From: a virus
DNA: 64,000 nucleotides
Reading direction: 5' to 3' (one strand)
IMG/VR virus record: IMGVR_UViG_3300008227_000003
Span: 149-64,148 of that record
The notes under the pieces: generated by a model
What the model saw: only the letters and a program-made list of their open reading frames with translations
The model's database searches: none
Told to the model about the DNA's origin: nothing
Shown: piece after piece, positions 31,312 through 35,799 of the stretch
Layout: every line of letters begins with the position of its first letter
How positions within the stretch are numbered: the stretch's first letter is position 1
Made by a program: the position numbers and the translations under genes

Positions 31312-32262
31312 ATGAGGATGCCAATGGCTACTAAACGAACACCTGCCAAAAAACCACCAAACCAAGCTAAAGTCCAACAAGGATCCATAACGGAAACCGA
31401 GATGCTAGCCGCACACGCGACGGTTGCTCCAGCTGAAAAAACAATCCCAGCACCGGTACCAGCGCAAACACCCATTCCCGAACCAACCGCATCATCCAAT
31501 CCACTGTTGGATAAAATTCGTATGCCTGGTCAAACATATCAGATACCTTCACAAGGCACACTATACACGGATGGTGAATTGGACTCATCTGTGGTAAACG
31601 GTGAACTGCATGTGTATCCGATGACAACTATTGATGAGATCGTTGTTAGAACACCAGATATGCTATTCAGTGGTGATTCAATTGAACAAGTATTCAAACG
31701 ATGCATACCAGGGGTATTGAAACCGAAGGATTTATTTGCAAAGGATGTTGATTTCCTGATGGTGTGTTTACGTCAAGTTTCTTATGGAGATCAGTTCGAT
31801 GTAACGCATACTCACGATTGTCCTGACGCATCAACGAATGAATATGCAATCCAAATGGGACCGTTCATTAAAAACACCAAACAGATTGATCCCACCACGA
31901 TTCACAACAAGTTTCATGTTGTGCTGGACAACGGACAGACTGTCGAATTGTTACCGATCAGATACCGCAATGTTATTAAGATCATGCAGGTATTTGAGGA
32001 TGATATCTCACCGGAACAACAACAAGACAGAATGATTGACACATTGGAGGGGATCATTAAATCCGTTGATGGCATTACAGATACGGACATGATCAAAGAA
32101 TGGTTACAGAAAATACCGATTAAGTGGGCTAACCAGTTATCATCTGCTATCGATGAGACTACGGATTGGGGACCTGATTTTACAACAAAAGTAAAATGTA
32201 AAGATTGTGGTGAGGTGATGGATATCACCATTCCGATGAACCCAGTAAGTTTTTTTATCTAG
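31312..32262 (+). CDS. gp26: gp26-like baseplate hub / tail assembly chaperone
   Basis: YPMTTIDEI...DVDFLMVCLRQVSYG...HDC...TKVKCKDCGE...IPMNPVSFF; start may be 31324 (SD GAGGA). Confidence 0.8.
   Translation: MRMPMATKRTPAKKPPNQAKVQQGSITETEMLAAHATVAPAEKTIPAPVPAQTPIPEPTASSNPLLDKIRMPGQTYQIPSQGTLYTDGELDSSVVNGELHVYPMTTIDEIVVRTPDMLFSGDSIEQVFKRCIPGVLKPKDLFAKDVDFLMVCLRQVSYGDQFDVTHTHDCPDASTNEYAIQMGPFIKNTKQIDPTTIHNKFHVVLDNGQTVELLPIRYRNVIKIMQVFEDDISPEQQQDRMIDTLEGIIKSVDGITDTDMIKEWLQKIPIKWANQLSSAIDETTDWGPDFTTKVKCKDCGEVMDITIPMNPVSFFI
32250..32256 (+). promoter_or_regulatory. Candidate -1 slippery heptamer T TTT TTT
   Basis: In-frame X XXY YYZ two codons before TAG; -1 frame open 32214-32486. Confidence 0.6.
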
Positions 32263-32285
32263 TACTAAAATCTGGCAATCCTGAG

Positions 32286-32486
32286 ATGTACAAGAAAACT
32301 GTGGAGCAAATGCAGTTGGAAATTTCGGGGATTGTTAATTCAATAGTGGAGCTGTCGTGGTATATGAGGGGAGGTCTTCAATACCACGACGCTTTAAATC
32401 TTACACCTGGTGAAAGGGACATTATGCGTTCTTTCATTGACCGTAGGATGGAAAAACTAAAAGATCACTCGTTTCCAGTCTATTAG
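32286..32486 (+). CDS. gp51-like short chaperone segment (probably expressed as frameshift fusion)
   Basis: LSWYMRGGLQYHDALNLTPGERDIMRSFIDRRME; no clear SD before ATG. Confidence 0.7.
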   Translation: MYKKTVEQMQLEISGIVNSIVELSWYMRGGLQYHDALNLTPGERDIMRSFIDRRMEKLKDHSFPVY

Positions 32487-33327: not shown

Positions 33328-35799
33328 ATGGCATCAGGTGAAATAAATGAAGCGTTATCAGCGATCAACGCATTCGGACTATCATTGAGAAACAGCACAA
33401 AACAATACAGTGCTTTCATCGATAAGATGGAAAACCACAACGATACCGCTTCCGATAGAAGAGAGCTCCGTGCTCAGGAAAACGGGATCAAGGTATTGAA
33501 GAAAACATCCGATGCCTTGGGGGACCTACAAGATAAGTCTGACAAACTCAAAAAAGAAAATGAGATGCAGACAAAAAATTCCAAGAAAACTTCAAAAGAA
33601 TTGAAGAAGTTGGCCAGAGATCTTCACAAAGCATCACCCCAAACGTTTACCAAAGAAATGGTGAAAAGTTTTGATAATGCTGGTAATGATGCTGCTAGTG
33701 TTCGGTCTGCGTTTAATGTGTTGAATGCTGAAATTACCAAAAGTACGAAGGTCACCAACAGCAGAATGCAAACTGATGTCAAAGCGATGAAGCAGACATA
33801 TCAAGCGACGCAAGCGTTGAAGGATAGGACCGCAGCACTAAAATCGTCAGTTAAGGGGTTGTTTACTTTTGAACGCGGCATGACTGCGATAACAGCATCA
33901 CTAAAACGTAGTTTCGACCAATTGGAATATGCCCAACAAAAACAAATTGGCATGTATAGTATTATCGGAGAGGGGATAAAATCGTCAGCTCTGAAGATGG
34001 GGCTGGCTCCCGAAGAAATGCAGAAATTTGTTGGAGAGAATAAAAATCTATTCCTATCAATGCAGGAGGATTATACTAGCGTAAACGACGCTGTCCGACA
34101 AAACGTTAGCATGTTGACCGCTGAGCGTGATGGACGTGAAAGTTTAATGGATATGACCTACAAACTGACGGGGTCGTATGCCGGTGCATCGCAGTTAATG
34201 GGTACTTCAATGGATATTTTGAAGGGGTTTGGTGAGAAGGTGGGCCTGAATGATATCGCTGATCAATCCGAAATAATGATAAATCAATTTGCCAAACTCG
34301 GGCGAATGTCCAATAAAACCACATCCGAAGTCGCATCAATGACACAAAAGATGTTGGGTAGTGAGGCCGTTCGTAATAAGATGCTGAAGATGCAAACCGT
34401 CCAAGAGCGAAAAGCGTATAAAGATAGCATTCTTAAGGAAGCAGAGCGAAACAAAAAACTTGGTATTTCGCTAGAATCCACATTTGCAATGGCAGAGAAA
34501 GCTGCAGGATTAAGCGATCGGGGTGTGATGGATAGGATGAAAGAGTCCATGGTAGTCGCAATGGTTGCCGCTCAATCCGGTATGAGTGGTAAGGATGCAG
34601 ACAGGTTGCGTCAACTGGATATGATGGTTGGCAAGGATGGAGATCAACAAAAAGAATACAACACATTGTTGGGACAGATGAACAGCAGGATAGCTGACAT
34701 TCGGGGTAAAAACGATCCAGCATCACTGGCACAAGCTGCCGCACTTGAGCACCTAATCGCAAAAATGCCGAAGGTAAACGAATTTGCACAAACGATAGCA
34801 AAGGAAACAGAATTTGGAGCGGGCAAGGGAACGAAAGATCCAGGCGAAGACACGCTACAAACGATACCGAAATTCCTACAAGAGATAAAACAGTTATGGG
34901 ATTCGTATGCTCGACCACTGATAGCTGATCCAGTGGTTTCTGCTATCGGTGGATTAGTTGGGGTGTTAACGGATTTATTGGGACCGATATTGACTTCCGT
35001 TGGTGGCATATGGGGAGCGCTCAAGATGTTCAAAGGTGGACAAGGTCTGGCCAGCGGTATAGCGTCGAAAGTGGCTGACTTGGCAAATGGTGCAAAATCC
35101 AGGGTCGGTGGGATGGTAACTGCAGCAAAAAATGCAGGTGGAGGCTTAGTACAGAAAGCAGCAGAATTAGCATCGAAAGCCATGCAATCGGTAAAAAGCA
35201 TCGGATCTCAAGTTGTTCAGCATGGAAAGAATTTGGTTCCTTCGTTGTGGGGTGTACTGAAGAATTTTGCCAAGAGTTTGTTTAGACGACTACCGATAGC
35301 TATAGCAGCAGCGATAGGGTTGAAGCTTGGTGATATTGCAGGCCCAAAAGTTAGACAAGGCATTGAGGCCATTGACAAGAAGTTGGGAACGGATGCGTGG
35401 GGATCTGTTGTGGATACAGTTGGAAAATCAGTTCATGATACTGTTGGATTGGTTGATAGAGTTGCTAATTTTATTTCTGGGGGGGATGCAGCGACTCCCG
35501 TTGCTGCGGGAGTTGGTCCTGTCATTGCTGATGGATCTGCTGTCACCAATCAACAAGTGCAGCAAGCACCAGCAAACCAAACCGTGACACAATTAACCGA
35601 ATTAAACGCCAAGATATCCGAACAGAATGCAATGATGCTTAAACAAATTGAAGCTGCTATGGAAGCATCTCTGGGCATCACAAAAATGAACAAAACCATA
35701 GAAGATACCAGCTTTAAGCAGCAAGAAAGCTTAGATGAGCAGAACGATTTATTAAATGAGAATTCTCAGTTTGGCGAGGTTCAACAGAAGGTTAAATAA
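33328..35799 (+). CDS. Tape measure protein (823 aa)
   Basis: Long helical Ala/Lys/Gly/Met-rich ORF, hydrophobic Gly-rich segments near C-term, downstream of chaperone pair. Confidence 0.75.
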   Translation: MASGEINEALSAINAFGLSLRNSTKQYSAFIDKMENHNDTASDRRELRAQENGIKVLKKTSDALGDLQDKSDKLKKENEMQTKNSKKTSKELKKLARDLHKASPQTFTKEMVKSFDNAGNDAASVRSAFNVLNAEITKSTKVTNSRMQTDVKAMKQTYQATQALKDRTAALKSSVKGLFTFERGMTAITASLKRSFDQLEYAQQKQIGMYSIIGEGIKSSALKMGLAPEEMQKFVGENKNLFLSMQEDYTSVNDAVRQNVSMLTAERDGRESLMDMTYKLTGSYAGASQLMGTSMDILKGFGEKVGLNDIADQSEIMINQFAKLGRMSNKTTSEVASMTQKMLGSEAVRNKMLKMQTVQERKAYKDSILKEAERNKKLGISLESTFAMAEKAAGLSDRGVMDRMKESMVVAMVAAQSGMSGKDADRLRQLDMMVGKDGDQQKEYNTLLGQMNSRIADIRGKNDPASLAQAAALEHLIAKMPKVNEFAQTIAKETEFGAGKGTKDPGEDTLQTIPKFLQEIKQLWDSYARPLIADPVVSAIGGLVGVLTDLLGPILTSVGGIWGALKMFKGGQGLASGIASKVADLANGAKSRVGGMVTAAKNAGGGLVQKAAELASKAMQSVKSIGSQVVQHGKNLVPSLWGVLKNFAKSLFRRLPIAIAAAIGLKLGDIAGPKVRQGIEAIDKKLGTDAWGSVVDTVGKSVHDTVGLVDRVANFISGGDAATPVAAGVGPVIADGSAVTNQQVQQAPANQTVTQLTELNAKISEQNAMMLKQIEAAMEASLGITKMNKTIEDTSFKQQESLDEQNDLLNENSQFGEVQQKVK

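Follow-up and report, generated by a model that had tools for sequence, protein, structure and literature searches.

A 64,000-nucleotide stretch of viral DNA, positions 149 to 64,148 of IMG/VR record IMGVR_UViG_3300008227_000003 (hereafter the window, meaning this whole stretch), comes from a jumbo phage related to bacteriophage T4 and carries a gene related to T4 gene 26 that very probably undergoes a programmed -1 ribosomal frameshift. At the 3' end of this gp26-like gene, a run of seven T residues, a stop codon and an overlapping reading frame are arranged in such a manner that translation would yield a short and a long form of a protein resembling the G and GT tail assembly chaperones of phage lambda. 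The frameshift had been put forward in an earlier, sequence-only reading of the window and is sustained by three lines of evidence, namely the constraint on synonymous sites of the slippery heptamer, the fixed -1 phase among homologous loci, and a protein-coding signature in the -1 frame ahead of the available start codons. The window is part of a 68,750-base IMG/VR fragment, an identical gp26-like protein is encoded on a 277,870-base contig, and the nearest cultured relative is the Ralstonia jumbo phage RsoM2USA.

The gp26-like open reading frame (ORF) ends in AAC CCA GTA AGT TTT TTT ATC TAG, where the first T of the run occupies the third position of the AGT codon, placing the heptamer T_TTT_TTT in the X_XXY_YYZ phase (Table 1). 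The -1 frame is open from position 32214 to the TAG at 32484-32486 and reads from FF through YLVLKSGNPEM into a 66-codon ORF with an ATG start, while the +1 frame is closed after eight codons. At the sequence level, two products of 316 and 391 (315 + 76) residues are predicted, which have their first 315 residues in common, the long form being joined at residue 315 with the junction NPVSFF/YLVLK. The ATG at 32286 is directly preceded by CCTGAG and has no spaced Shine-Dalgarno sequence, and the 66-codon ORF is probably not an independent gene. The codons and frames of the window thus agree with the sequence-only reading with respect to the phase of the T-run, the open -1 frame leading into the small ORF, the missing Shine-Dalgarno sequence and the approximate sizes of both products.

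Table 1. Coordinates, strands and supporting evidence for features of the putatively recoded locus and its downstream neighbors in the window.
Feature	Coordinates	Strand	Basis or details
gp26-like gene, 0 frame, 316 aa	31312..32262	+	PF12322 and phrog_150 matches, AlphaFold2 model
Slippery heptamer T_TTT_TTT (U_UUU_UUU), X_XXY_YYZ phase	32250..32256	+	read from sequence
0-frame stop TAG, one codon past the heptamer	32260..32262	+	read from sequence
-1 frame extension, 76 codons (YLVLKSGNPEMYKK...SFPVY) + TAG	32256..32486	+	homologous -1 extensions, codon-position entropy, hhalign
66-codon ATG ORF reported by gene callers, wholly within the extension	32286..32486	+	ORF list
Predicted stem-loop	32263..32348	+	outer helix 32263-67/32344-48, inner helix 32273-84/32325-37
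Membrane-protein ORF, 229 aa	32510..33199	-	several hydrophobic segments, basic C-terminus
823-aa ORF, candidate tape measure, presumed chaperone client	33328..35799	+	composition, language-model leads

According to the proposed mechanism, most ribosomes would terminate at the TAG codon and release the short form, and a fraction would slip back by one base, with two tRNA-Phe on U_UUU_UUU, and continue in the -1 frame to complete the long form with its helical 76-residue C-terminal module. A stem-loop starting 6 nucleotides downstream of the heptamer would probably stimulate the slip. Together, the two forms would chaperone the assembly of the baseplate hub and the tape measure protein without being part of the virion, similar to G/GT of lambda or E/E+E' of P2, and in T4 their equivalents would be encoded separately by genes 26 and 51.

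A tblastn search that used the -1 frame peptide as its query identified homologous sequence in 13 jumbo phage records from 11 distinct phages, immediately downstream of the gene annotated as "baseplate hub". Ten IMG/VR loci and 80 metagenome loci were then collected. The 90 distinct loci analyzed come from GenBank jumbo phages (Xoo-sp13, XacN1, Atu_ph07, Phosso, PA5oct-like MIJ3, RsoM2USA, RAS14, 121Q, RaK2 and CBB), IMG/VR and metagenomes, and protein identity among homologous loci ranges from 22% to 80%. A homologous extension of 70-82 residues is present in the -1 frame at every one of the 90 loci, and the +1 frame closes. The slip site reads GCT TTT TTT ATT in Xoo-sp13 and XacN1, CAT TTT TTC in Atu_ph07, Phosso and 121Q, AGT TTT TTC in PA5oct-like phages, CGT TTT TTC in RaK2, and AAT TTT TTC in CBB. 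The length of the T-run varies from 4 to 9 over the set and is most commonly 7, as in RAS14, with T9 in RsoM2USA, and the 0-frame stop lies exactly one codon past the heptamer in 67 loci. Conservation of the heptamer and of the -1 phase across homologs had been named by the sequence-only reading among the means of checking its proposal, and both checks came out in its favor, with the canonical T_TTT_TTY in 80 of the 90 loci, constraint at its synonymous sites, and a -1 phase that is the same in all of them.

Since Phe-Phe is conserved at the protein level as well (EFFELL is the end of T4 gp26), the synonymous positions of the slip site are the informative ones. The first Phe codon, which would lie in the ribosomal peptidyl (P) site, is TTT in 86 of 86 cases as compared with a fraction of 0.605 elsewhere in the same genes (binomial 1.7e-19), and the codon before Phe-Phe ends in T in 81 of 90 loci versus a background of 0.33 (binomial 2.5e-29), both being values that overstate the independence of the loci because shared ancestry is ignored. 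T4 gene 26, which has no extension, reads GAG TTC TTT and breaks both of these synonymous-site rules. Among the matches listed, 118 of 120 database homologs end in FF followed by 0-3 residues, and an in-frame fusion of body and extension occurs in none of these 120. Judged from the alignments, the arrangement of the slip site is not a product of chance.

RNA structure downstream of the heptamer provides a further signal. The fold predicted for the window has an energy of -19.4 kcal/mol (z -1.86), and in a consensus fold of four sequences from the window's clade the outer helix starts 6 nucleotides past the heptamer, with an inner 12-bp helix that contains two compensatory pairs and sequesters the ATG at 32286. 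Over 87 distinct loci, the 60 nucleotides after the heptamer are more stably folded than shuffled sequences, with a mean z of -1.30, compared to -0.07 for a control stretch in the same gene (Wilcoxon p 9e-7), and strong hairpins are predicted 6-8 nucleotides past the heptamer in Xoo-sp13, XacN1, MIJ3 and others. Because the structures differ between clades, their role as a stimulatory feature is considered suggestive.

A fused product might also arise at the level of transcription, if RNA polymerase added one U on the T-run and thereby generated a subset of fused messenger RNAs (mRNAs) that ribosomes translate without shifting. Polymerases are known to slip on long A/T runs of bacterial and insertion sequence (IS) genes, and in favor of such a process the run is homopolymeric, with 7 residues in the window and 8-9 in 17 of the 90 loci, and one added U gives exactly the -1 frame. 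However, the run is only T6 in 16 of the 90 loci, including cultured PA5oct-like, Rak2-like and Atu_ph07-like phages, and T4-T5 in two, and slippage of the polymerase is unlikely at loci with T6 or shorter because such runs are too short for efficient slippage. Moreover, the X_XXY_YYZ phase, with the first T at codon position 3, is kept at any run length, and RNA structure enriched 6-8 nucleotides downstream would be expected to stimulate a ribosome rather than a polymerase. Transcriptional slippage is therefore regarded as improbable, and the programmed ribosomal frameshift is retained as the preferred explanation.

The composition of the extension itself bears on whether it is reached from the slip site or translated on its own. 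In the first 15 codons past the slip site, the entropy of the -1 frame at codon positions 1, 2 and 3 is 1.34, 1.21 and 1.69, respectively, and at Leu4, Gly7 and Ile12 of the extension the first two bases are fixed and the third is nearly random. As an alignment-level pattern, this is a protein-coding signature located upstream of any start codon. Alternatively, the locus might consist of two independent genes, with the gp26-like protein ending at its stop and a 66-residue subunit initiated at the ATG at 32286. Such an arrangement agrees with the small ORFs annotated at this place by gene callers and GenBank records, with the occurrence of Met at codon 15 of the extension in 47 of 87 loci, and with the presence of the module in the +1 frame in SP-15-like and HSE3-like phages, where it may start on its own. 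Nevertheless, the 14 codons before this common Met are conserved as protein (Y-x-T-L-K-S-G) with the third position most variable, and the position of the start is not conserved. The first Met falls at codon 31 or later in 13 loci and is absent in two, including the PA5oct type, and the ATG of the window (codon 11 of the extension) is missing in its nearest relatives, one of which, L007, reads D-F-Y there. In addition to its lack of a spaced Shine-Dalgarno sequence, the window ATG lies inside a predicted helix, and independent genes would leave both the synonymous-site conservation of the heptamer and the fixed frame offset unexplained. Since the -1 coding signature precedes Met, the start position shifts and a spaced Shine-Dalgarno sequence is missing, independent initiation cannot explain the data, and the two-gene interpretation is deemed very unlikely. 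Finally, a sequencing or assembly error, or a recent pseudogenizing mutation in a gene that truly has one frame, might be suspected, since homopolymers are prone to errors and the sequence comes from a metagenomic IMG/VR fragment. This reading can be practically dismissed, as the same break in the same phase recurs in about 90 loci that were assembled independently of each other, some of them in finished genomes of cultured phages, and the 120 listed database homologs include no in-frame fusion.

The gp26-like protein belongs to Pfam family PF12322 (T4_baseplate), which it matches with an E-value of 2.6e-9 and 37.5 bits against a gathering cut-off of 24.5, over profile positions 43-218 of 219 (37.8 bits for the gene in a genome-level search). 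It also matches phrog_150 (baseplate hub) at E 2.5e-12 and, in a fold search of BFVD, T4-like hub assembly proteins at E 4e-20. The AlphaFold2 model (mean predicted local distance difference test score [pLDDT] 88.5, predicted template modeling score [pTM] 0.79) is confident except for a disordered N-terminus of about 60 residues (window 31312-31500), which is rich in Pro, Ala, Lys and Gln, is predicted to be disordered with pLDDT values of 50-63, and has no counterpart in T4 gp26 and gp51. Past this segment, both hhalign and the model point to two chaperone-like repeats, the second of which ends in CKDCG...NPVSFF. PF12322 is apparently an internal tandem duplication, with residues ~67-168 and 195-290 forming similar alpha/beta units in the model, and Cys/His motifs (HDC after the first unit and CKDC within the second) suggest a zinc ribbon. 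On the other hand, the small ORF and the full extension match no Pfam or PHROG family, including phrog_634 and phrog_150, and blastn of the region against the phage collection gave no match.

The model was also searched against 48,161 representative solved chains. The best match is YqbN (PDB 3KLU; Z 6.1, root-mean-square deviation [rmsd] 3.7 over 83 residues), which superposes on repeat 2, followed by the HK97 tail assembly chaperone (PDB 2OB9; Z 5.8, rmsd 3.7 over 91 residues). We take YqbN to be the skin-element paralog of PBSX XkdN in B. subtilis. XkdN is the tail assembly chaperone of PBSX (PMC9406221; also PMC11948020). Further matches were obtained for 3FGX (Z 4.4, on repeat 1) and the PLE protein 5IR0 (Z 4.0), with unrelated chains at 3.8 or below. 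Given that two chaperones occupy ranks 1 and 2, a chance match is unlikely. An AlphaFold DB entry named "Tail assembly chaperone" (112 residues) matches repeat 2 at E 0.011. Foldseek against PDB returned nothing at E <=0.001, its top-probability row being the HK97 chaperone at 0.33, and PF12322 proteins have no sequence-level match among the Pfam chaperone families. The HK97 and YqbN chaperones are chains of about 100 residues on which each PF12322 repeat superposes, and PF12322 differs from them in having two repeats and zinc-ribbon-like Cys pairs, with no detectable sequence similarity and modest Z-scores. In the virion proteome table of phage CBB, the neighboring large protein CBB_251 is present, and CBB_250 and CBB_249 are not in the table. 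Because weak fold matches to chaperones rank at the top, the gene order of SP-15-like phages (described below) is that of a chaperone, and the T4 literature on gp26 and gp51 points the same way, a chaperone role of the gp26-like gene is somewhat favored.

In that literature, T4 gp26 and gp51 are given as hub assembly chaperones (Leiman et al. 2010, PMC3004832, Table 2), and gp51 is described as required for assembly, absent from the particle and "of unknown function" (PMC3004832). Both T4 gp26 (208 residues) and gp51 (249 residues) are full-length matches to PF12322, and gp51 has 48 extra C-terminal residues, a tail on which its homologs carry a second, newer Pfam family (PF28602). A profile of 83 distinct extensions was compared by hhalign with a profile of the T4 gp51 tail and 90 homologs, which gave a probability of 84.4% and an E-value of 7e-6 over 31 columns (Y…M.M.P.ER…[FL]IEK), at the same position relative to the C-terminus; controls (the reversed profile and 30 column-shuffled ones) reached at most 2.1%. 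When full-length fused forms were aligned with gp51, an offset alignment, pairing the second half of the window family with the first half of gp51, ranked first and reveals the internal repeat, and the colinear alignment ranked second (E 0.002), pairing NPisFF-y.tLksg..e.I with ifkLL-nPDEvF. The extension is thus probably homologous to the gp51 tail, as far as profile comparison can tell. The label "gp51-like", which the sequence-only reading had given to the small ORF, holds in a more restricted sense, in that the 48-residue tail is the one part of gp51 that aligns with the extension, in the profile-profile comparison.

A six-frame search found two PF12322 genes in T4 and a single one in each of the complete genomes of 121Q, RaK2, MIJ3, RsoM2USA, Xoo-sp13, Atu_ph07, CBB and HSE3. 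The most economical interpretation of this copy number of one versus two is that these phages would accomplish with one recoded gene the work of T4 genes 26 and 51. The short form of the window and T4 gp26 (KEFFELL) share the Phe-Phe motif at which they end, and gp51 runs past Phe-Phe into a helical C-terminus that can be aligned with the extension (NPDE…Y…M.P.ER…IEK). The two systems differ in that T4 has two diverged paralogous genes on opposite strands with no slippery run, whereas the window has one gene with putative recoding, and in that the gp51 tail comprises 48 residues versus 76 for the extension, the homology of the two being detected by profile-profile comparison alone. As a side observation, T4 gp26 weakly matches phrog_1140 "baseplate hub distal subunit" (the gp28 family) at E 9e-4, a hint that gp28 may be a further distant relative with the same fold.

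With respect to the gene neighborhood, the gp26-like gene is preceded by genes for an SbcC-like nuclease, a RuvC-like resolvase and a helicase, and is followed by the antisense membrane-protein ORF, the 823-residue ORF without a family and a T4-type portal gene. The 229-residue antisense ORF also belongs to no family and has a weak, sub-threshold SfLAP match. The 823-residue ORF, which begins 840 nucleotides past the extension stop and beyond the antisense ORF, is rich in A, K, L, G, S and Q and poor in aromatic residues, and a homolog occurs at the same place in L007. An Atlas language-model feature search gave leads to TMP_3 (0.94) and PhageMin_Tail (0.93). No match was found in Pfam, PHROGs, PDB or a phage tblastn search of 50,697 records, although adjacent genes do match; the ORF may be very fast-evolving or clade-specific. 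On the basis of its composition and the Atlas leads, it is a probable, as yet unproven, tape measure gene. The statement of the sequence-only reading that the frameshifted pair lies just upstream of the tape measure gene accordingly stands in part, in that a candidate lies downstream on the same strand, and needs qualification in that the antisense ORF intervenes and the identity of the candidate is not shown by homology.

In Bacillus phages SP-15 and HSE3 and Listeria phage LIS04, the sheath and tube genes are followed by PF12322, the extension and the tape measure gene, a short gap or a small ORF lying between PF12322 and the tape measure. This order is shared by Microcystis phage Mel-JY01, except that a large ORF without a name occupies the slot of the tape measure. 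The slot between tube and tape measure in SP-15-like phages is the canonical chaperone position. In Rak2-like phages, the neighbor of the PF12322 gene is a divergently transcribed large virion protein. A homolog of the extension is found in the +1 frame in SP-15 (L107, 3700-3950), LIS04 (L108, 3690-3950), Streptococcus phage GXN1 (L109, 3710-4000), Mel-JY01 (L110, 3720-3970) and HSE3 (L022, 2180-2413; E 1.6e-5 with the extension hidden Markov model [HMM]). Maintenance of a two-product arrangement across different frames is a known trait of tail chaperone genes. The 0-frame ends in this +1 group read TTT TTT CAC GCC CGA TTC, TTC TTT CGT CCC CGA and similar, and the extension could be reached there by a +1 frameshift (on TTT_C or NCC_CGA) or from a separate start. 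LIS04 has no annotation at the extension, and in the sparse annotation of GXN1 only the sheath gene is found upstream.

Several observations weigh against a frameshifted tail chaperone, in addition to the homopolymeric T-runs discussed above. The T-run also encodes the conserved Phe-Phe, so its conservation is partly at the protein level. Ten of the 90 loci have imperfect heptamers (G_TTT_TTT, C_CTT_TTT, T_TAT_TTT) and still keep the -1 extension, and two further distinct loci read CTC TTT TCC TAA, without T_TTY in phase, yet are likewise followed by a well-conserved extension in the -1 frame. Evidence for the hairpin in the window's own clade comes from four sequences only. With regard to function, the structural Z-scores of about 6 are under 8 and too low for a safe fold match by themselves, and a gp51 model matches the same chaperone chains only at Z 3.8-3.9, most matches in a wide PDB search with the gp51-like model being generic helical hairpins aligned to the tail. 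When an HMM is compared with a sequence, no significant homology is seen between the extension and the tail of gp51 (E 1.4), which is the reason why this homology is held at the level of probability given above. Furthermore, the window gene follows a helicase gene rather than a tube gene, and the candidate tape measure is without homology support. With respect to the loci that read CTC TTT TCC TAA (L087 1481-1510, L090 1499-1528 and L092 884-913, amounting to two distinct metagenomic homologs), a -1 slip would require re-pairing on CUU, or else a +2 slip onto TTC.

Two-form tail chaperones produced by frameshifting, such as gpG/gpGT of lambda, E/E+E' of P2 and their counterpart in Mu, are a textbook trait of long-tailed phages. 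T4 and its relatives are, to our knowledge, not among the phages for which a frameshifted tail chaperone pair has been described. In GenBank, the cultured relatives have a small hypothetical ORF or nothing annotated at this place, never a joined coding sequence, and no description of the frameshift was found in the open-access literature, which included the articles on phages CBB and Atu_ph07 and the review of the T4 tail, most subscription journals lying outside this coverage. A recoded tail chaperone is of a known kind, and the family concerned, the link between T4 gp26 and gp51, and the evidence from fold and synteny are new as far as is known. A broader proposal, regarded here as evenly poised, is that PF12322 proteins may be the tail assembly chaperones that contractile tails of the T4 type had seemed to lack, derived from an ancestral gene with a recoded extension that would lie in the -1 frame in jumbo phages of Gram-negative hosts and in the +1 frame in SP-15-like and Microcystis phages, and that would have been duplicated in the T4 lineage into genes 26 (G-like, short) and 51 (GT-like, long).

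If this proposal is true, T4 would be no exception to the nearly universal G/GT rule, and gp26 and gp51 could be tested as a chaperone pair for the tape measure and the hub, with a ratio that depends on recoding or on separate promoters. The frameshift itself would mean that giant phages of a large T4-related clade possess an unannotated recoding signal in a gene named "baseplate hub subunit", and that hundreds of genome annotations miss a protein of about 390 residues and give a spurious small ORF instead. For the essential T4 proteins gp26 and gp51, whose mechanism was unknown as of the 2010 review (PMC3004832), short and long chaperone forms offer a concrete hypothesis. The -1 slip, the +1 frame and gene duplication would also provide a natural comparison of three ways to set the ratio of two forms.

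Xu, Hendrix and Duda (2004, Mol Cell 16:11, as cited in PMC9024508) reported that the tail assembly chaperone genes of long-tailed phages have a frameshift in common, which is conserved, and lambda G/GT is the closest point of comparison for the system described here. Compared to lambda G, a single domain of about 110 residues, PF12322 spans about 250 residues with two chaperone-like repeats and Cys pairs, and the heptamer is U_UUU_UUY instead of G_GGA_AAG. In the window, moreover, the gene lies after a helicase gene, and an antisense gene precedes the candidate tape measure, the presumed client. The likenesses are nonetheless extensive. As in lambda, the upstream ORF has the slip site at its extreme 3' end, the long product would add a C-terminal module to the complete short sequence, the shorter of the two presumably predominates, and the arrangement is kept while the sequences diverge. 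An association with a tape measure gene, a candidate one in the window, is likewise seen, and the best solved fold matches, at modest Z-scores, are tail assembly chaperones. As among the chaperones of long-tailed phages in general, the direction of the shift may differ by clade, being -1 in the jumbo phages considered here and corresponding to the +1 frame in SP-15-like phages.

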